This document shows, piece after piece, positions 11,535 to 35,461 of a stretch of DNA of 64,000 nt (positions are counted from its first letter, which is position 1; each line of letters opens with the position of its first letter). A program made the position numbers and the translations under genes. The notes beneath the pieces were generated by a model. It was not told the DNA's origin, made no database searches, and saw only the letters and a list, made by a program, of their open reading frames with translations. Source of the stretch: Naegleria gruberi (Eukaryota); the NCBI GenBank assembly GCA_000004985.1, contig GG738878.1. One strand, 5' to 3'.

Positions 11535-11895
11535 GCTAATAAGACATTTAACTATTGGCACCTTAGCAGTGAACTACTCAGTAGTACAGTAATCCCAATA
11601 ATCAATTGATTGAAACCTCTTTGTAATTTAAATCATCTTTTTGTAAATTAATTAAACAAAACTCACCTCTTGACGCCTCTTTGCAAATCTTTCATATAAC
11701 CGAGTTGCTAATTTTGTAATTATTTAGAAGAATCTCCACCTCAAAGAACTACATTGAGCCCACAACTACTGCTTCGACTCTAGCCAAATTAACACCAACA
11801 AAAAAAAGCACCAAACAAAATGGTTTCCGACACCAATAACAACAATCAGAGTTGTGCACAACAATTGGATCGCCGACAATTTTTTCATTAAGAAT

Positions 11896-14067
11896 ATGGT
11901 AACAAATTTGAACCATTTTATATATGTGAATATGACAAGGAGTGCAGTGGTGGGAATGCTGCAAATTTTGTGTCAAATAAGCTATGGACCTACATTACCT
12001 CTGCATATATTTTCAGTTTATAAGCTTCTAATTTCTACAGTAACTTTTTATTTTAGTAGACCTCTAGCAATTGTTTCTGCATCAATATTTGTTACATTTA
12101 ATGCTGCTGCTCTTGGTATTTCATTTTGGGTGAATTATGATTCATTAACACAAATCGAAAGGGATTACTTTCCTTTTAGATTTATAGAAATGTTGGTAGT
12201 ATTATATAGCGTGTTTATTGGATCAATGCTTTTCTCAATATTCATTACAGATAAGAATAAGCAATATACAGCTCAACAAATTGAAACTACGAAGGAAAAA
12301 ATTATTAGCTCTGAAAAGACAAAATATATTGCCAATTTGAGTCATGAAGCTAGAAATCCTTTGCACGCCATTAGTGGATCTATTTCAATCCTCAAACATA
12401 ATATCCAATCTGAAGAATGTAGTAATCAATGTCCTCACTGCTATGTAACAAATGGTTCTATAGCTGAATTAGTTGAAGACCTGGAAGAAAACACAACATT
12501 ATTGGAGCATATATTCTCGTCTTCATTACAAGTTAGCTCACTTGAAATGGGAAAAGTTGAGTTAAAAGTTGAAGATACTAACATGTTATGTCTAGTTGAA
12601 TCAATTACTAGTGTTTTCTCTCAATTGGCTAAAACCAAACAACTTTCACTTCACAGTTACTTTAATGTAATTAAGGTTCCAATTTTTTTGAGAGCAGATT
12701 CTGTTAGAGTAAGCCAAGTGGTAATGAATCTTATATCTAATGCCATTAAGTACACAGATAAGGGACATATTAAATTGAATTGTGATACTCTGAGTGAAAG
12801 AGAAATTCGCAAACACTTTCCAACAAAAAGTATTGAAGAGTATGAATTTATCAAAATTGAGTGTATAGATACAGGTAAAGGAATCCCTGAAGCACAAGTT
12901 AAGGATCTTTTCAAACCATTTCATGTTGTTGAACAAGGTCAAAAATCTGTTGACAGCTATATTGCTCAAACAGAAAAAATGGCAGAATTCAAAGATATTA
13001 ATGGTGCTAGTATGTTACTCAATACTAGTCGTAGCAATGGCCTCGGATTATCTATATCAAAAATGCTTATTGATAAGATGGAGGGTGATATTATTGTTTC
13101 CAGTAGTTCGAAAGGTACTAACATGACTATCATTTTACCACTGAGAAGGGTTAAGCCAGAAGTATTGAAGGAAGAACTGGTTCAGAAGAATAACAATTAT
13201 TTAACATGTGACAAGATTTTTGAGATTTTGAATGAAGAAAATGAAAGATTGAATATTATAATTATTGATGAGGATAGATTTTTCAGACACATTATGCTCT
13301 CCTATTGGAAGATGTTTAAGAGAGCTGTTCACATTAGTGCAGAGTATAAAACAAGTATAGAATTTTGTGATTCAGAATTAGACAAGGATTTAATGCAAAA
13401 TACCACAGTTATTTTCTGCCCTGAAAAAGATATCAAACATACAGAGTCCAATTTCAAACATGAACGAGTAGTTTTGATTCCAACCATTTGTAGAGGTAGT
13501 CATAGATTATTTTCGGATCGTATCTACCTTTCCAAGCCAGTGAAATTTATAGATTTGTTGGAATTTGTCTATGAACATATTTTTGATAGAACTGCTTCCT
13601 CCACTCATAGACAAAGTGTTGTGGAAATTGAGAAAATACCAAAAATAATGAAAACCAAGTCAGTACCAGTAATTGAAGAATTCAAGAGTGAAAAAAAAGT
13701 TCTTATAGTTGATGACAATCACCTAAATCTTAAAATATTGGAAAAACTCCTTAGAATATTAGGTTTTGAAGACATTGAAGTTGCCCACGATGGTATGGAA
13801 TGCTTCAACAAGTATAAGAAGAAGAATTATGATATTATTTTATTAGATTGCATAATGCCTATTCTAAGTGGAAAAGAATCTTGTGAGCTTATCAGAAACA
13901 TGGAAAAGCAAGAACACCTAGAACATAGAATCCCAATATTAGCAATCACAGCAAATGTTTGGGAAGATAGAGAATCTCTTATATCTCAAGGTTTTGACTC
14001 TGTTATTTACAAACCTATTCAGCTGGAGAAACTACAAGCAGAAATGATGGCTTTATTGGATGATTAA
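11896..14067 (+). CDS. Hybrid sensor histidine kinase (TM region, HisKA, HATPase_c, receiver domain)
   Basis: H-box ANLSHEARNPLHAISGSISIL. N/G1/G2 boxes MNLISNAIKYTDKGHI / DTGKGIP / NGLGLSISKMLIDKMEGDIIVSS. C-terminal receiver KVLIVDDNHLNLKIL...ILLDCIMPILSGKE...ITANVWEDRE...YKPI. Several hydrophobic segments lie before the kinase. The listed ORF start at 11854 is GTG, so the first ATG at 11896 (MVTNLNHF...) is used. An upstream exon cannot be excluded. Confidence 0.8.
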   Translation: MVTNLNHFIYVNMTRSAVVGMLQILCQISYGPTLPLHIFSVYKLLISTVTFYFSRPLAIVSASIFVTFNAAALGISFWVNYDSLTQIERDYFPFRFIEMLVVLYSVFIGSMLFSIFITDKNKQYTAQQIETTKEKIISSEKTKYIANLSHEARNPLHAISGSISILKHNIQSEECSNQCPHCYVTNGSIAELVEDLEENTTLLEHIFSSSLQVSSLEMGKVELKVEDTNMLCLVESITSVFSQLAKTKQLSLHSYFNVIKVPIFLRADSVRVSQVVMNLISNAIKYTDKGHIKLNCDTLSEREIRKHFPTKSIEEYEFIKIECIDTGKGIPEAQVKDLFKPFHVVEQGQKSVDSYIAQTEKMAEFKDINGASMLLNTSRSNGLGLSISKMLIDKMEGDIIVSSSSKGTNMTIILPLRRVKPEVLKEELVQKNNNYLTCDKIFEILNEENERLNIIIIDEDRFFRHIMLSYWKMFKRAVHISAEYKTSIEFCDSELDKDLMQNTTVIFCPEKDIKHTESNFKHERVVLIPTICRGSHRLFSDRIYLSKPVKFIDLLEFVYEHIFDRTASSTHRQSVVEIEKIPKIMKTKSVPVIEEFKSEKKVLIVDDNHLNLKILEKLLRILGFEDIEVAHDGMECFNKYKKKNYDIILLDCIMPILSGKESCELIRNMEKQEHLEHRIPILAITANVWEDRESLISQGFDSVIYKPIQLEKLQAEMMALLDD

Positions 14068-19823: not shown

Positions 19824-21779
19824 ATGGAACAATCAAATTTTGATGCAGGTGGAGGAAGTGAATTAATTTCCATCCAAGAATTAATCAAGAAAATTCAAAG
19901 CCTTCATTCTCACTTTAATGATGATCATGAATTGCATCATCCATTCCGAAGTATTTATTTGTATGGATCGTCGGTTTATGAAAATAAGGCTTGCAAATTG
20001 GTTCATAATATTAGAGATGATGATGATGATAGTGAAGGCTATTTAATGATTAGGGAGGGAGTTGTGGTTGGTGATTTGGATATCTTGTTGGTGAGGGATG
20101 GATTTCATCATTCTGGATTGAAAGATTTGATTCATGAGGAGGATAGGGATGAAAAGGATGTTTTCTTTGAGCAGGATATTACGTTGCATTTCAAGTTGAA
20201 AGGATCTAAGGGAAATTGGTATGATATTGAGACGCATATTATGTCAACGAGTATATTTATGGAGACAATTAGACAACATAAGGGAATTACATGTCAATAT
20301 GTGTTTATGGATAGGAATGAGTTTGTGATTTATGAGGATGAATTGATGGGATGGTTTAGATGTTTTTGGTTTAGGAATTTTCATTTTCACAGGAGATTGT
20401 TTAGGAGAATGATTGTGAGAGAGGCTGATGTGTGGTGCTACTCGAAAGCAAGAAGATTAATAACCATTGAGAAAGATTATGAAAAGGGAAAGAAGAACCT
20501 CATTCACGGTATTAGATATTTTAGATTGAGTAATCAAATTTTGGAAAATTTAACAATTAATGATTACACAGTTACCAATGATTTGAAGAAACAAGTACTT
20601 TCTCAAAATTCAACAGATTGGAAATATTGGGAAGAAATGTTTGAGCCAATGTATTTATCGGAAAGAGATGAGTTCAATAAGAAAGTAGACTTACATATTC
20701 AGGGTGGCCTCAAAGTTGCATCAGAGTATTCTGAGAAGGTGGGTGTATCGACACTTTGTAATATAATTGAAGATCATGGATTACAATATCTTTCTTTGAA
20801 TTTTAGCACTGACATTATTCCACTTGCTATTTTCGATCAAAATGGTGAAGAATTGGATCTTGTAAAATATCTTACATGTGAAAGTTTAATTAGAGTGTTG
20901 CTAATGGGTGTAAAGTTGAACTCTGAAGATTACAGACATCATATATTGAAACAATTATCAAATCTAGAATCTGACATACGAGGATACTCTATTCTCTTCA
21001 AAATAACTCAACTGGAAGAGATGGAAAGAATTGATGAAACAATCCCTAGAAAACCATTGAGAGAAACTAATGGTATCGTGATGTCTGCTACAGTGACTGA
21101 TTCGTTAGAAATTACTTACAAACCAGTGGCTGTTCCTTTACCAAAAGTTTATGATGAATTCAGGTGGTTGAATACTAGCACCAAAAACAAGACTCAATCG
21201 AGTCAACTATCTTTATTAGAAGTGGATGAGATAACATCAATATCAAAAAATTATAGAGGTGATACCTACATTCTTTATAATTACTGTGGAAAATGGAGAT
21301 GGTCTCACCCAAATGAAGATCTTCAATACTTTACAAAACTATCCAATGTAAGACATAGTTCAGGTAATGAAAAGGAGCAGTTTTGCAGCTTGTTATCTCC
21401 TGGAGCTAATTTTGAAGAACTGAATGCCAGACTTGATAACCATACAAATAAGAATTTCATATTTGTCAAACCAATATCAGAAAATTATTTATCATTAATT
21501 GCTGTTCGAGACCTTACAAACAATACTATTTTAGATTTGGAACCATTCTCAAATTTACTATTTGATTGCAAATACATTCAAAAAGAAAATATTGGAATGT
21601 TAAAGAAAAAGGCCTTGGAAATGAGTTCAGATTTGCTTTACAAACTTCCTTACAAATGCTCATCTCAACATGAGAAGGATATTGTCACATTATTGAAATA
21701 CCTTTACTATCTTTCTAATTCGTTGGGTTTTTGCTATGATGGATTTAATATTAATCTAAAGTTAAAATCTGGTAGGTGA
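19824..21779 (+). CDS. Hypothetical 651-aa protein; possible nucleotidyltransferase-like N-terminal region
   Basis: Long ORF with a real ATG at 19824. N-terminal ..IYLYGSSVYENK..(acidic insert DDDDDSE)..VVVGDLDILLV is reminiscent of a pol-beta-type GS...DxD nucleotidyltransferase, but the spacing is atypical. The rest has no recognisable motif. It may continue into the 21787..22323 ORF through a short intron. Confidence 0.5.
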   Translation: MEQSNFDAGGGSELISIQELIKKIQSLHSHFNDDHELHHPFRSIYLYGSSVYENKACKLVHNIRDDDDDSEGYLMIREGVVVGDLDILLVRDGFHHSGLKDLIHEEDRDEKDVFFEQDITLHFKLKGSKGNWYDIETHIMSTSIFMETIRQHKGITCQYVFMDRNEFVIYEDELMGWFRCFWFRNFHFHRRLFRRMIVREADVWCYSKARRLITIEKDYEKGKKNLIHGIRYFRLSNQILENLTINDYTVTNDLKKQVLSQNSTDWKYWEEMFEPMYLSERDEFNKKVDLHIQGGLKVASEYSEKVGVSTLCNIIEDHGLQYLSLNFSTDIIPLAIFDQNGEELDLVKYLTCESLIRVLLMGVKLNSEDYRHHILKQLSNLESDIRGYSILFKITQLEEMERIDETIPRKPLRETNGIVMSATVTDSLEITYKPVAVPLPKVYDEFRWLNTSTKNKTQSSQLSLLEVDEITSISKNYRGDTYILYNYCGKWRWSHPNEDLQYFTKLSNVRHSSGNEKEQFCSLLSPGANFEELNARLDNHTNKNFIFVKPISENYLSLIAVRDLTNNTILDLEPFSNLLFDCKYIQKENIGMLKKKALEMSSDLLYKLPYKCSSQHEKDIVTLLKYLYYLSNSLGFCYDGFNINLKLKSGR

Positions 21780-21786
21780 ATATTCA

Positions 21787-22323
21787 GTGAAATGCCAATC
21801 TCAATTTTATTTTAATATCAGCCAATTAACTGTATGGCATACCTCCATTAATATTGACGATGTTACTGAGGACGGAAAATTCAACAAATTTCATGGCAAC
21901 ATTCTTAGCCAGAGTAATGAACTTCTATTGATTGAAATGGCTCTGGTGTGGTTGGAATATTCTTGGGATGAACAAGTTTTTGAAATTGAAAGAAAAAGCA
22001 ACCCAAAGACGGTTCCATTTTCGGATATCTATTTTACTATCAAACAGGATTGGAAATGTATTTGCAAACTTTACGATGATTTTTGTGAATCTTTAAAAGA
22101 ACAGATAAGTTCAAGTTCAATAGATTCCAAAGATGTCACCAAGTTCATTGCTCAAAATTGCACTGAATTTGCTCTAGAAAATAAGACAATTATTTATAAG
22201 GTAGCGGAGGCAAACTTTGAAATAAGAGCTATTGAAGTGTTCAATAGTCCCAAGAGATCTATTGATGCAAATAGTCTTGTTAAAATATGGAAAGATTACA
22301 AGAAGAAGTATCCTTCAAATTAG
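21787..22323 (+). CDS. Hypothetical ORF (178 aa); possibly the 3' exon of the preceding gene rather than an independent gene
   Basis: Starts 8 nt after the stop of the 19824..21779 ORF, in a different frame. A 46-nt GTGAAT...ATATCAG intron (21776..21821) would fuse the two in frame (..KLKSG-S-QLTVWHTS..). No domain recognised. Confidence 0.3.
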   Translation: MKCQSQFYFNISQLTVWHTSINIDDVTEDGKFNKFHGNILSQSNELLLIEMALVWLEYSWDEQVFEIERKSNPKTVPFSDIYFTIKQDWKCICKLYDDFCESLKEQISSSSIDSKDVTKFIAQNCTEFALENKTIIYKVAEANFEIRAIEVFNSPKRSIDANSLVKIWKDYKKKYPSN

Positions 22324-22359: not shown

Positions 22360-25022
22360 TTATTTTTCAGTTAGTGCTAAAGCATAATCCTCACTACAAT
22401 TCTTTTCAGCCATACTCTTCAAGTATTGAGCTCTTCTCTTCAACTCGGCAATATATTTAATGGAGGAATAATCAATAGCGAGTTCTTCTGGTTTGTAAGT
22501 TTCTTTCCATTGTGCATTGAGTCTGTAAATTTCCTCAATTTCTTCAACGGCAGTGTCATACTTTTTATCAAAGAGAGCATCTCTTATTCTCAATAACCTA
22601 TCACTCACCACCTTCTGTGAGGATGTAATATCTTCAATTTCACCGTCGACAGTGTAAACTTCAGTTGGTTTGGATTTACCTTTTAGTCTGACTGAATCGA
22701 CATACATGCAAATAAACTTATTCTTCACAATCTCATAAGTATTGTTGCCGATAAGAATTGGTGTATCATATCTCTTGTTTAACATTTCTAATCTACCAGC
22801 AGTGTTAACAGTGTCACCAATAGCTGTGAAACTGAATCTATCCTTTGATCCAATATTTCCCATCATACAATTACCAGTATTGACACCAACTCTAATCTTG
22901 ACAATTGGAAGATTTTCCTTAATACATTTCGATTTCAATTGGTCAATCTTGTACAAACAAAGAACTGCAGCCCTTGTTCCCTTATAGGCATGGTCTTGTA
23001 CAACTCTTAATGGATTTGAAAACAGACTCATGGTACCATCCCCAATGAATTTATCAATAATACCATCATGTGCCTCAACTGTCTCAGTAATAATATTGAA
23101 ATACTCTGTCAGAATTTTAAGCAAAACAGACAAGCTTGAAGATTCTGAAAACGAAGTAAAATCTGCAATATCAGTAAACATAACAGTTGAATTCGCATTG
23201 GCCATTCCCAACTTGGAAGCATTACCTGTTCTTACAATATCCCTGACAATATCTTTTGGAATATATTTCATAAAACTGTGCAAACCATTCTTCACTGTCT
23301 TGATTGAGGTCTGTAATAGATCGAGTTCATACATGGTCTTAAGGACCTTGGATGGCTTCACTGTATCAACTTCAAGTTTAGAAATCTTGTACATATCTCT
23401 GGAAACTTTCCATATTGATCTTGTAATGAATTGAGTAACAACTATCATTAATAAGGTACCCAGAATAATAAGTATAATAGATACTGATAATAGAGCGGGT
23501 GAACTTGTGAAAATGGTCTTGACGAACCCATAGTCCTCTGTAACAATCACCACAATCCAATCAAGCCCATTATCGGTAATTTGGTGGATAGTAATCTTGC
23601 TGTTACCCACCATGAACATTGAAAAATCTGCATTTGGGTCTAAGCTTTCCTTAATTGTGCTCGTTGGGATAGTAGTAGCAGTTCCCCACATGGACTTTGG
23701 AAGATGGTACAGTATCTTTCGATCTTCCAGCACTGTACAAACCTCTGAGAATACTTCAGTTGTGTTCGAGATGTGATTTCTCACATTGGACGGGTCTTTT
23801 GTTTGCGCATTGAATGAAGAAGATATAATCAAGCCGTGTCTCTCAACAATCAAAACCTTAATAGATATTGTTTGCATATCCTTATTGGCCTCAATAACAT
23901 TAACAAGCGAACTATCAATATTGTACAAATCAAAGTGAGCACCAACAATTTGAGTAACATTTCTTGTCTCGACAGTTCCATTAGGATAGACATAATCCTG
24001 AGTATTAATAAAATCCAACGTTGTGGAAGCTCCCAGTGATGTAGCTCCAATGAATGCGTTGAAAAACACAGGTGACCACATGTAATCTGGATATGTCTTA
24101 GAAAGACCTGCCTTAAACCATGGTCTAATGGTTGGATCGTAGTTTTTGCTGGCCTGCTTTAACATGATTGGTTCATAAAAATCATCTCTCGAATAAATAC
24201 CAACAGTAGCATTATCATCTCTGATTTGAATGGTATCTCGCGTTACACTCTTTTCAATGGCACAATAATTCTTAATACTGTTGCCGTAGTAAAAGATTGA
24301 TGAACTAGGGAAGCTACTCTTGGAAGGTCCAAAGACAGATCTTATCCTCCTGCAAGTGTCATCATAACTATTGGTCAATTTGAAATTTAGTTTGTGGTCC
24401 TGGATCAATATGCCATTTCTCATCGTTTCCAGGATTGTTGGTGCTACATTGATAAAATCCTTGATTTTAGTCACGATATTCTTCTCTCTGATTGTTGTTA
24501 TATTATTAACGGATTGTTCTCCGCTTGAGTAGAACAATAATATTAAGGAACCTATGATGAATAATTATTAACATATATATTATTAAAAACTGTTAACTTA
24601 CCAATGCAAATAGCTGTTTGAAGGAGAAAGACAACGAGAAGAATATTTTGGAGAGTGTGTGGGGCTGGACAACATTCTTTGAAAAACCTTTTCATCTTGC
24701 CTTTCTTTCCCTCAGAGTACCCAAATAAATCATCAAATGTTGAACTTATCGTTGAAATTCCATCTGATTGAAGGCTTAGTGAGGCATGGGATGAAGAATT
24801 TTCTGTATTGGATTGGAAATAGTTTGTTGGTGGGTGTTCATTTGGTTCGCTTGCTGTTGTTGAGGTAATATAGGTATTCGATCTAGAGTTAAAATCACTT
24901 GAAAAGTCTAAACTCCCAGATGATGGATAAATCTTATTATCAAAATAATAAGATGCAGAATTAGATCTGTGTGATCTTGTTTTTGATATCTGCTGATGAA
25001 GAGGTGTTACTTGGGTAACCAT
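22360..25022 (-). CDS. Receptor-type class III adenylyl/guanylyl cyclase with an extracellular Cache-like sensor, two exons 25022..24602 and 24551..22360
   Basis: Exon 1 is a low-complexity cytoplasmic N-terminus followed by ..ILLVVFLLQTAICIG|GTAAGT. A 50-nt intron ends CATCATAG. Exon 2 begins SLILLFYSS.., so a TM helix spans the junction. The ectodomain of about 330 aa contains YDPTIRPWFKAGL, the R-P-W-[FY] signature of Cache domains. A second TM follows (LLSVSIILIILGTLLMIVVTQFI). Cyclase catalytic core: VMFTDIADFTSFSE...IDKFIGDGTMSLFS...IRVGVNTGNCMMGNIGSKDRFSFTAIGDTVNTAGRLE. Confidence 0.8.
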
Positions 25023-28657: not shown

Positions 28658-29767
28658 TCACAACACGTTTAAATGTAGTTCTACCTTTGCTGTGATATAA
28701 TCCCAATAATCAATCTCCAAATGATTGAGACCCTCTATTTCGACTTTGTAATTTAAATCTTTTTGTAAATTAATTTGAGTTTTTACAGTGTCATCCAATT
28801 CAAGTTGGGTGTTGTTTAGAGAGTTTATCTTTTTCAAATCCAATTCTTCCAGAGGCATCCAACAATCCTTCCACTTTGAAATCAATTGAGGAGCATTGTC
28901 AAAATCATTCAAATGAACTCCAATCCATGACATTCTGGAACAAGTTTGAAGCACCCAATAATGCCAATCTTCGGTGGAGTCTACACAACTATGGATGGTC
29001 AGATTCTCCTTCTCATTTTCAAATGATAACGAACCATTCATGTAAACATTGGCAATTTCAGCTCCATAAGGATCACCATCTGTGAGTGTGAAAATATTCA
29101 AACTTCTCCTTTGATATTTTGCTACTTGCTTTGTTAGTGTTACAATAAAATCTCTTGTTGGAACATCAGGATATCCCTTAGATGTGATTATTAATGATGT
29201 ATCTTTGAGACTGCTTGCTTGACTTTTCAACACTTGAAAAACTGACTCTTTTTCAACAATGATCACCTTATCTACTTCAACAGGGATAGAGAACTCTACA
29301 ATTTGTAAATGAGGAATCGAAGGAAGATTACACCCTTTAGAAGCACTGACTATAGTTGTTGTTGGTTGTTGTCCTCTATTTTCAATATCAATCAATGAGA
29401 TTTCCTTCCAAGCAATTGGTCCACAAACTTCTCCCTTCGATTGAGGAACAATATGAAGATCATGCCTATTAACTCGCCAACTTGATGATAAATCCTTCAA
29501 TATGGAATCTAGTTGTGTCTGATCTTTTAGAATAGGCTTGTTACAATAATACAAATCTCTCTTGGTTGAAAATTTGTTTAAAGTACACAACTGATACACT
29601 AAATTCATCACCTGAAACTTGGAAATAAATGTTGATGGATATTTGGTCAGATCTTTCAGCAAGAAGCCTTTTTCATTCGGAATATCAGATGATGGTGATG
29701 AAACTAATTCCCTCACAAAGGCTAAAACTTTCTCCTCAATTCTTTCTCTCACTTGAATTGTTTCCAT
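28658..29767 (-). CDS. SPO11: SPO11 / topoisomerase VI subunit A homologue (meiotic double-strand-break transesterase)
   Basis: Winged-helix 5Y-CAP region with catalytic Tyr in FSTKRDLYYCNKP. Toprim domain with the conserved Glu in VIIVEKESVFQVL. ..LIITSKGYPDVPTRDFI.. and the DxD metal motif in IFTLTDGDPYGAEIANVY. All are in the order and spacing expected for Spo11/Top6A. 369 aa. Confidence 0.85.
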   Translation of the reverse strand: METIQVRERIEEKVLAFVRELVSSPSSDIPNEKGFLLKDLTKYPSTFISKFQVMNLVYQLCTLNKFSTKRDLYYCNKPILKDQTQLDSILKDLSSSWRVNRHDLHIVPQSKGEVCGPIAWKEISLIDIENRGQQPTTTIVSASKGCNLPSIPHLQIVEFSIPVEVDKVIIVEKESVFQVLKSQASSLKDTSLIITSKGYPDVPTRDFIVTLTKQVAKYQRRSLNIFTLTDGDPYGAEIANVYMNGSLSFENEKENLTIHSCVDSTEDWHYWVLQTCSRMSWIGVHLNDFDNAPQLISKWKDCWMPLEELDLKKINSLNNTQLELDDTVKTQINLQKDLNYKVEIEGLNHLEIDYWDYITAKVELHLNVL

Positions 29768-33967: not shown

Positions 33968-35461
33968 TTATTCCTCTTCCAAGTTAGAAGTACTGCCGTT
34001 GGTGTTGATTTGTGGTTTTCTGTATTGAAGAGTCGGAGCTTCAAGGAATTGTTTTGCCTCTTCAACCTTATTCTGACTCACAAACTTGAGAACAACGTCT
34101 ACAATTAATTTGACATGATTATTTTCATTAATGTGTCTGGAAATGTCAAACATGAGTTTTTTAAGGGTGTTTGAGGTAATGTTCTTATTGATGTAGTTGG
34201 CTAATTCTCGTTGAGTTGGATTTTCTTCCATTATTTTCTTAACACGTTGCAGTGTTCTTTCAGAGAATTGATCAATGACATTCCACAGTTCATCATTGAA
34301 TGTTTTTAAATATTCCTTTTCCTCTTCAGTGTTTAGAATTGGAATCAAATCATCAATTCCTCCCTCTAAAACTAACCACCATGAGTGAGATTCATTGATG
34401 TAGTTGAATTCCAATCGTTGTTTCTTAAAGTGAATAGTACTGTACCAATCTGATTTTACCTTGTACATTTCACCATTCCAAAATCGAATAACGCATCCTT
34501 CAAAATCTGTCTTTTTCTTAATTTCAGCAATAATCTCTGCAATTGAATGCTGTTTATCTTCTTGGAAGTGAAATTCGGTTGATTTTACACAATCAATCGA
34601 GTACTTGTTGGCAATATTTGTCATTTCATCAAATTCAACATAATCACCATTAATGGTATCTCTAATAGCAATCAAACTCAATTGTGGTGAATCATAGATA
34701 ATTACAATCTTGTAATCTGGTGAGCAGAATTCAAAAATTGGTGTAAATCCTTTCTCAATATAATCCAAACAGAATCGGACTGTATTTTTGAGTTGAAATT
34801 GTGAAGAATTCTGTAAAAATTGATCAACTGTTGGTATTAATTGTTCATATTCCTCATTGGAAACTTCTCTCAACCCATACATGTACTTTTCACATCCTTT
34901 AGATGTGGAATTATGTCCAAAACCTTGTTTAGTTCTAAATCTGAGTCTCTTCTTCATTTCTCCATTCACCTCAATCGTTTCCAATATTGGAATTACCAAA
35001 CTTCCATCCAATTTATCCAAAACATGCATCTTCTTACTCAATTTAACACTCTCTTCCAACTTGTCTTGCACTTTCTTCATATTCGTCTCTTCCTTCTCTC
35101 CAACATTGAAGAATTTATGCAAACAACGTGAAACAAGCTTTCCAGATGCACTATCAAAGGCCAATCCTCTAATTTCCCTCCTAATTAAATCATCAATCGT
35201 TCTGATGGGTGAAGGAAACGTTGTAGAAGTCACTCTCCGATAACTAATATAAATAAAACCTCTTCCATCATTATTTACATTAAATTCCTTAGCATCTCCG
35301 ATGGATTTTAAACATTGATCCAAGCATTCAATAATTGGCCATCCTTGCTCTCCAACACTTTCACCCACAATAAATGGTGATGATGAGGTTTCTGTTGTTG
35401 TTGTTGTTGTATGATCTTTTTCTGAGGTTGGGGGTGATGATTGTTGTTGTTGTGGAATCAT
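33968..35461 (-). CDS. ATP-dependent RNA ligase of the T4 Rnl1 / tRNA-ligase adenylyltransferase type (497 aa, stand-alone)
   Basis: Covalent nucleotidyltransferase motifs in canonical order. Motif I is KLDGSLV (..KKMHVLDKLDGSLVIPIL), matching the T4 Rnl1 KEDGSLV signature rather than the KxDGxR of DNA ligases and capping enzymes. Motif III is TPIFEFCSP. Motif IV is EGCVIR. Motif V is YKVKSDWY. The C-terminal 170 aa are helical and contain no kinase P-loop or CPDase motif. Confidence 0.75.
   Translation of the reverse strand: MIPQQQQSSPPTSEKDHTTTTTTETSSSPFIVGESVGEQGWPIIECLDQCLKSIGDAKEFNVNNDGRGFIYISYRRVTSTTFPSPIRTIDDLIRREIRGLAFDSASGKLVSRCLHKFFNVGEKEETNMKKVQDKLEESVKLSKKMHVLDKLDGSLVIPILETIEVNGEMKKRLRFRTKQGFGHNSTSKGCEKYMYGLREVSNEEYEQLIPTVDQFLQNSSQFQLKNTVRFCLDYIEKGFTPIFEFCSPDYKIVIIYDSPQLSLIAIRDTINGDYVEFDEMTNIANKYSIDCVKSTEFHFQEDKQHSIAEIIAEIKKKTDFEGCVIRFWNGEMYKVKSDWYSTIHFKKQRLEFNYINESHSWWLVLEGGIDDLIPILNTEEEKEYLKTFNDELWNVIDQFSERTLQRVKKIMEENPTQRELANYINKNITSNTLKKLMFDISRHINENNHVKLIVDVVLKFVSQNKVEEAKQFLEAPTLQYRKPQINTNGSTSNLEEE

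Follow-up and report, generated by a model that had tools for sequence, protein, structure and literature searches.

Cache domains joined to class III cyclases are known from bacteria and from eukaryotes. According to Upadhyay et al. 2016 (PMC4822843), Cache in Naegleria occurs in "a bacterial-type adenylate cyclase", and their table gives two N. gruberi proteins, D2VLR9 (894 aa) and D2V3A4 (745 aa), with the combination Guanylate_cyc + dCache_1. Ebenezer et al. 2019 (PMC6366073) report, in Euglena, a eukaryotic subfamily that combines one class III cyclase domain (NCIII), transmembrane (TM) helices, HAMP and cache1, close to N. gruberi genes, and a similar cluster in kinetoplastids. The published Cache-cyclases are interpreted as bacterial-type sensors acquired horizontally (PMC4822843, PMC6366073), and bacterial dCache_1AA-cyclases are known, with amino-acid binding shown (PMC8915833). 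Here we analyze the gene NAEGRDRAFT_50277 (protein D2VKE8), which lies on the minus strand at 25022..22360 of a 64,000-nucleotide (64-kb) stretch of Naegleria gruberi contig GG738878.1 (assembly GCA_000004985.1); we refer to the whole stretch as the window. We consider it highly probable that its product is a two-pass receptor adenylate cyclase with an extracellular dCache_1-type sensor, a HAMP-like/transducer linker, a class IIIb cyclase domain and a three-helix C-terminus, that is, a mosaic of bacterial-type modules.

D2VLR9, D2V3A4 and the Euglena and kinetoplastid Cache-cyclases share their overall plan with D2VKE8: Cache outside the cell, TM helices, and one class III cyclase domain. The Naegleria entries in the portion of the Upadhyay et al. 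2016 table used here (PMC4822843) do not include D2VKE8. The latter differs from the published proteins in that its Cache domain falls below the Pfam thresholds and its public gene model is without TM1. A preliminary description of this DNA, made from the sequence alone, had placed eukaryotic Cache domains mainly in the alpha2delta subunits. That view is out of date since the publication of the Naegleria and Euglena Cache-cyclases (PMC4822843, PMC6366073), and the accompanying claim of novelty is overstated, as proteins of this kind were reported in 2016 and 2019. What is new here is the membership of D2VKE8 despite the lack of a Pfam call, a 5' extension of the gene that includes an intron, and a pocket with only half of the amino-acid motif.

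A double Cache ectodomain predicted from homology and fold

The 870-aa protein is ordered as N-tail, TM1, a 344-aa ectodomain, TM2, linker, class III cyclase domain and helical C-terminus. Single-sequence phmmer leads to cyanobacterial dCache_1 + HAMP proteins with E=1.6e-8 and 2.3e-4 (5.8e9 sequences) at 99-100% query coverage, and an exhaustive phmmer search of 1.84e9 representatives adds two further cyanobacterial dCache_1-HAMP matches with E=4.5e-6 and 9e-5. For profile-profile comparison we used hhalign with seven sequences of the Naegleria/Willaertia family on one side and 26 bacterial dCache_1 proteins on the other, with no mixing between the two. The alignment of the family-only with the bacteria-only profile extends through 355 columns, starting at TM1 and reaching the first HAMP helix, with a probability of 99.8 and E=2.7e-29; at full length, the family aligns to bacterial dCache-HAMP-cyclases with E=2.5e-45 over 587 columns. 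The AlphaFold2 (AF2) model of residues 142-520 (pLDDT 84, pTM 0.79) begins with an N-terminal helix of 50 residues and a second helix; a five-stranded distal module follows, then a helix that connects it to a proximal module, and last a C-terminal helix that continues into TM2. This predicted fold fits what is expected of a dCache domain, in which two PAS-like alpha/beta modules stand in tandem behind a long N-terminal helix. Pairwise homology, profile homology and predicted fold are together decisive in our assessment, and point to a double Cache domain of the dCache_1 type.

The sensor, predicted to be extracellular, spans 23497..24528 (residues 149-492; this and all other features of the gene are on the minus strand), with the long N-terminal helix, a membrane-distal module at residues ~226-348 and a membrane-proximal module at ~349-480. 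The preliminary description had read an R-P-W-F Cache signature between the two TM helices, and it is indeed there: YDPTIRPWFKAGL at 24103..24141 (residues 278-290), aligned to PctA, within the 344-aa segment. The membrane-distal module also carries an inserted beta-hairpin of ~17 residues (...NTQDYVYPNGTVETRN..., 23962..24015, residues ~320-337) that is specific to the Naegleria/Willaertia family and missing from 64/64 aligned bacterial relatives.

Linker and cyclase domain

The 48 residues after TM2 (residues 518-565, 23278..23421) overlie exactly the HAMP of bacterial dCache-HAMP-cyclases in the hhalign profile-profile alignment, with which they are collinear, and we describe them as a putative degenerate, HAMP-like linker of two helices. 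They are followed by a cyclase-transducer-like helix, SFMKYIPKDIVRDIV, and a connector to the catalytic domain (residues 566-589, 23206..23277). The SFMKYIPKDIVRDIV helix is conserved across the family, and its counterpart in photoactivated and phytochrome-linked adenylate cyclases is their pre-catalytic handle, in alignments that start at residues 553-565.

The cyclase homology domain occupies 22639..23205 (residues 590-778). The canonical class III domain announced in the preliminary description is confirmed by a Pfam Guanylate_cyc match to residues 594-774 (E=3.8e-20), which passes the Pfam threshold, and by six catalytic residues; the fold also agrees with this class. The top PDB sequence match is Pseudomonas aeruginosa CyaB (E=6e-25), and alignment to CyaB identifies the catalytic hexad as D601 and D645 for the metals, K641 and T716 for the substrate, and N723 and R727 for the transition state, all six invariant in eight family members. 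A Lys and Thr substrate pair marks class IIIb adenylate cyclases, and a single-domain protein that has the whole catalytic hexad is expected to form a homodimer with two active sites. From the K641/T716 pair we infer a class IIIb adenylate cyclase that makes cAMP, not cGMP, so that of the cAMP/cGMP sensor first proposed only the cAMP part is retained. Since all six catalytic residues are in one chain, the enzyme would be a homodimer with two symmetric ATP sites.

Several results weigh against the proposed architecture. The gathering scores of the Pfam Cache models are reached neither by the NAEGRDRAFT_50277 product nor by any family member tested. MCP-like_PDC_1 (PF22673) remains below threshold at 18.6-20 bits for a cutoff of 27 (E ~1e-3), and dCache_1 (PF02743) has no match to the NAEGRDRAFT_50277 product, the best family member scoring 18 bits for a cutoff of 45. 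A search with Cache hidden Markov models was the check named in the preliminary description, and at 20 bits versus 27 for PF22673 and no match for PF02743 it came close to refuting the double Cache ectodomain, which stands on the phmmer and profile-profile matches and on the AF2 fold. The family-only profile gives a marginal match to PDB sequences (E=0.027, to 7k5n); stronger PDB matches came from a profile that already held two cyanobacterial sequences, and we do not count them as independent evidence. Bacterial dCache sequences were part of the alignment given to AF2, and the model therefore does not stand entirely apart from the homology argument. For the linker, the Pfam HAMP model (PF00672) has no match at E<=10 in eight family linkers, and AF2 renders it as a helix-loop-helix of low confidence (pLDDT ~50). 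Finally, two of the five positions of the amino-acid motif discussed below differ (F303 and H346).

Gene structure, intron and topology

The gene has two exons and one intron, with the ATG at 25022. There are two minus-strand open reading frames (ORFs), 25022..24552 (156 aa, beginning at the first ATG after a stop) and 24537..22360, and excising 24601..24552 joins them in frame into a coding sequence of 2,613 nt and 870 codons that ends in TAA. Exon 1 (24602..25022, 421 nt) comprises codons 1-140 and base 1 of codon 141, and encodes the N-tail, a CCPA motif and the first half of TM1. The spliceosomal intron (24552..24601, 50 nt, GTAAGT...CATAG) splits TM1 after position 1 of the G141 codon; its length is not a multiple of three, and its retention would introduce an in-frame stop. 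Exon 2 (22360..24551) runs from the rest of codon 141 to residue 870, with the TAA stop at 22360-22362. All the exon and intron coordinates of the preliminary description, including the 50-nt intron that splits TM1, were correct.

A search with the ectodomain returns a 100%-identical N. gruberi protein, XP_002675418.1 (EFC42674.1, D2VKE8, NAEGRDRAFT_50277), recorded as a "predicted protein" of 687 aa on a 395-kb scaffold. Exon 2 is identical to this entry from M184 onward. The public model thus starts at M184 of the 870-aa model, without the N-tail, exon 1, the intron, TM1 and the first 35 ectodomain residues. Because M184 falls within the long N-terminal helix of the predicted dCache fold, TM1 and a portion of the Cache domain are missing from the public model. 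Several models of paralogues (D2VL10 and those of N. lovaniensis) appear to be cut short at the N-terminus as well; a search for contigs encoding another paralogue, P0003, yielded none.

On the evidence of aligned sequences, we accept the 24552..24601 intron as real because an orthologue reads straight through the junction. This orthologue, on Logan contig L001 (run SRR25266766), is 59% identical over 656 residues, and has tail, TM1 and the start of the ectodomain in one unbroken ORF across the splice junction of the window gene. With a slash for the splice site, the window TM1 reads LLQTAICIG/SLILLFYSS; at the junction, AICVGSMLILL in L001 corresponds to AICIG/SLILL in the window, and L001 AICVGSMLILLDSSGQQS aligns gaplessly to window AICIG/SLILLFYSSGEQS. 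The TM1 intron is not present in L001, which has its own 68-nt GTAAGT...TAG intron (L001 1703..1770) ~80 codons downstream; these different sites suggest that intron positions have turned over between close relatives. The N-tail and TM1 of exon 1 align with L001 from residue 29 on, and also with the Willaertia proteins P0121 and P0126. In the two Willaertia magna homologues and one N. lovaniensis homologue, TM1 and ectodomain are encoded without a break, in Willaertia together with a cytoplasmic tail ahead of TM1, and the TM1 of bacterial dCache_1 relatives aligns without a gap across the splice junction.

Kyte-Doolittle hydropathy finds two hydrophobic segments, at residues ~126-148 and ~493-517, with the 344-aa segment between them. 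TM1 (24529..24647, including the intron; residues ~126-148) is assigned from hydropathy and from alignment with the TM1 of bacterial dCache_1 proteins, and has a conserved Gln in common with the cyanobacterial relatives. TM2 (23422..23496, residues 493-517) is assigned from hydropathy and is helical in both AF2 models. The N-tail is of low complexity and predicted to be cytoplasmic. The TM flanks, KKGKMKRFFKE before TM1 and RSIWKVSRDMYK after TM2, agree with the positive-inside rule, and would place the ectodomain outside the cell, bounded by the two TM helices, of which TM2 connects to the output. Directly before TM1 there is a Cys-Cys-Pro-Ala motif (FKECCPAPHTLQN, 24648..24680, residues ~115-125), kept in 4/4 homologues with a complete N-terminus, which may be a juxtamembrane palmitoylation site.

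Family and origin of the modules

Homologues of the same architecture are found in N. gruberi (D2VL10), N. lovaniensis, N. fowleri (FDP41_008636, and FDP41_006369, named "Cache domain-containing protein" in UniProt) and Willaertia magna (two proteins). The receptor cyclase is a multigene family in Naegleria and Willaertia. Members in which the relevant end is modelled have in common the CCPA motif before TM1, the TM1 Gln, the distal-module hairpin and a three-helix C-terminal extension. In NAEGRDRAFT_50277 this extension (22363..22638, residues 779-870) is modelled as three confident helices and ends L-T-E-K, the family form being L-(T/N/H)-E-K; it has no detectable relative.

Bacterial class IIIb cyclases whose N-terminal sensor domain is CHASE2 or PF19443 share 36-41% identity with the cyclase domain, and the class IIIa domains (KTIGDAYM, YDLWGD) found in the cyanobacterial dCache relatives no more than 27-31%. 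The sensor is nearest to the cyanobacterial dCache_1AA-HAMP family and the cyclase to the CHASE2-linked class IIIb cyclases, and these differing nearest relatives suggest that the receptor is a mosaic of bacterial-type modules. An en-bloc transfer from cyanobacterial dCache-HAMP-cyclases was considered and rejected, as the cyclase domains of the latter are class IIIa.

The ligand pocket

In the dCache_1AA motif, in PctA numbering, Y121, R126 and W128 bind the carboxylate and Y144 and D173 bind the ligand's amino group (Gumerov et al. 2022, PMC8915833). We obtained the corresponding residues by alignment to PctA and 7k5n together with 64 bacterial relatives. Y121, R126 and W128 are kept as Y278, R283 and W285; Y129 is changed to F286, Y144 to F303 and D173 to H346. 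The placement of F303 and H346 at the Y144 and D173 positions is gapless both in MAFFT and in hhalign. The N-terminal half of the motif (Y, R, W) is therefore present, and the C-terminal half (Y144, D173) is not. Two residues past H346, in the same strand, is an invariant D348. The strand-helix boundary had suggested D348 as the counterpart of D173, a reading that we dropped because the two gapless alignments put the bacterial Asp on H346; D353, suggested by an early 5-sequence MAFFT alignment, was also discarded.

The nearest bacterial relatives keep the motif, with Y in 54/64, R in 62/64, W in 60/64, Y in 61/64 and D in 58/64. Most members of the Naegleria/Willaertia family keep the Y/R/W triad; one member (P0122) has lost R and W, and Willaertia P0121 has Y at the Y144 position. 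The alignments indicate that the sensor descends from the amino-acid-sensor lineage, that it has kept the carboxylate clamp, and that it falls outside dCache_1AA as the motif defines that family. Our best guess for the ligand is a small molecule bearing a carboxylate.

In the mechanism that we propose, a small extracellular ligand, probably carboxylate-bearing, would bind the membrane-distal pocket formed by Y278, R283 and W285, and binding would displace TM2. The HAMP-like and transducer helices would relay this change to the geometry of the catalytic dimer, which in turn would alter cAMP synthesis.

Alternative explanations

Two alternatives concern the gene and its enzyme. The public annotation begins at M184, which raises the doubt that exons 1 and 2 may not be one gene and that the 687-aa model is correct. 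M184, however, is located in the long N-terminal helix that belongs to the dCache fold, a single protein comprises tail, TM1 and ectodomain in the orthologues and Willaertia homologues, and the bacterial relatives align from TM1 onward. The related possibility that the locus is bacterial contamination is opposed by the eukaryotic flanking genes and by orthologues with introns of their own. We give either doubt hardly any credence; the gene is native, as first described: its intron is spliceosomal, its neighbours are eukaryotic, and four heterolobosean species have orthologues. That the enzyme would be a guanylate cyclase, or a pseudo-cyclase without catalytic activity, is very improbable. In the Linder and Schultz classification, K/T is the adenine-specifying pair of the IIIb cyclases CyaB, CyaC and bPAC, and guanylate cyclases have E/C or E/G. 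K641/T716 is the adenine-specifying pair and not E/C or E/G, and the six catalytic residues are invariant across the family.

Other alternatives concern what the sensor detects. The ectodomain may be a genuine dCache_1AA sensor, in which case extracellular L-amino acids or GABA-like ligands would directly control cAMP synthesis. Y278, R283 and W285 correspond to PctA Y121, R126 and W128, the nearest bacterial relatives retain the full motif, the invariant D348 is two residues past the D173 equivalent in the same strand, and amino-acid binding has been shown for the Legionella dCache_1AA cyclase (PMC8915833). We nevertheless think this unlikely, since the Y144 position is F303 and the D173 position H346, in PctA D173A abolished binding and D173N lost function (PMC8915833), and the paralogues vary at motif positions, P0122 being without R and W as well. 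It is also conceivable, though we rate the chance as small, that the distal pocket binds no small molecule, and that the receptor responds to a physical cue (osmolarity, membrane stress) or to a ligand or partner protein at the membrane-proximal module. The dCache of yeast Sln1 is an osmosensor (PMC4822843), Dictyostelium ACG is cited as an osmosensing receptor cyclase in PMC9928731, the amino-binding half of the pocket is changed, and the distal module has the family-specific beta-hairpin at residues ~320-337. Retention of the carboxylate triad in most family members would yet be hard to explain without a ligand, and the pocket-forming strands are modelled with high confidence. A more specific version of the small-ligand reading is that the family is a lineage-specific (Naegleria/Willaertia) derivative of dCache_1AA, the universal sensor of amino acids, in which the carboxylate clamp is retained and the amino clamp rebuilt (F303, H346, D348), so as to sense a ligand class new for Cache. 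This is speculative, with odds well below even; if true, an example ligand would be a prey- or host-derived carboxylate without a free alpha-amino group, and cAMP levels in amoebae, the pathogen N. fowleri among them, would depend directly on it.

Genomic context

The window has a GC content of 33%. Besides the cyclase, its large ORFs code for VPS13, CRAL/TRIO proteins, a hybrid histidine kinase, a SET protein, Spo11/TopoVIA, a T4-type RNA ligase, a RasGAP and LRR proteins. The flanking genes are an ordinary eukaryotic chromosomal context. The hybrid histidine kinase ORF (11854..14067, plus strand; HisKA + HATPase_c + receiver), another bacterial-type signalling protein, is ~8 kb from the cyclase gene. 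The Spo11/topoisomerase VI subunit A homologue is at 28658..29767 and the T4-type RNA ligase domain protein (PF09511, E=6.6e-35) at 33968..35461, both on the minus strand. Two adjoining ORFs of 651 aa and 178 aa without a Pfam match (19824..22323, plus strand) run convergent to the 3' end of the cyclase gene, stopping at a distance of 37 nt from the cyclase stop codon, and could be a single gene divided by a short intron or a frame change.

Significance

The analysis corrects a truncated public gene model, and identifies in N. gruberi, N. lovaniensis, N. fowleri and Willaertia magna a group of cyclases that carries a double-Cache sensor uncalled by domain databases. PMC9928731 reports at least 81 cyclases encoded by N. 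gruberi. We found none of them paired with a known extracellular ligand, and the receptor described here provides a candidate link to cAMP. The half-kept motif is a clean case in which to study changes of Cache pocket specificity after transfer into eukaryotes. The general picture is unchanged, as the Naegleria and Euglena Cache-cyclases and their likely horizontal origin are already in the literature.

Comparison with known systems

The closest relatives of the sensor are cyanobacterial dCache_1(AA)-HAMP proteins, in which TM1, dCache, TM2 and HAMP are collinear with the Naegleria protein and the output is GGDEF, SpoIIE, HisKA or Guanylate_cyc. Some of them have the same order of sensor, HAMP and cyclase; examples of the group are a Leptothoe spongobia adenylate/guanylate cyclase (P0050) and a Coleofasciculus protein (P0004). 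Motifs in common are the TM1 Gln, SG/NG-Q-x-V, YDPxxRPWY, WS and GLDW. Identity to the Naegleria protein is only 21-23%. The cyanobacterial cyclases are class IIIa (KTIGDAYM, with an Asp specificity residue) where the Naegleria domain is predicted to be IIIb, and unlike the Naegleria protein they have a canonical HAMP, an intact Y/R/W/Y/D motif and an extra coiled coil of ~50 residues between HAMP and cyclase. The Naegleria protein in turn adds the N-tail, the hairpin insertion and the C-terminal helical extension. P. aeruginosa CyaB and the CHASE2-linked IIIb cyclases have sensors other than Cache, and are without that C-terminal extension.

Compared with the dCache domains of chemoreceptors (PctA, PctD, PscC, Tlp3, Mlp24) and of the Legionella dCache_1AA cyclase, the Naegleria protein has F303 and H346 in place of Y144 and D173. 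Its ectodomain is ~90 residues longer, and its output is a eukaryotic membrane cyclase. In metazoan alpha2delta and CACHD1, the dCache domain is interrupted by a VWA insertion and there is no enzymatic output, whereas the Naegleria domain is contiguous and of bacterial type. According to PMC8915833, all eukaryotic dCache_1 proteins carry the VWA insertion; the contiguous dCache predicted for Naegleria would be an exception to that statement.

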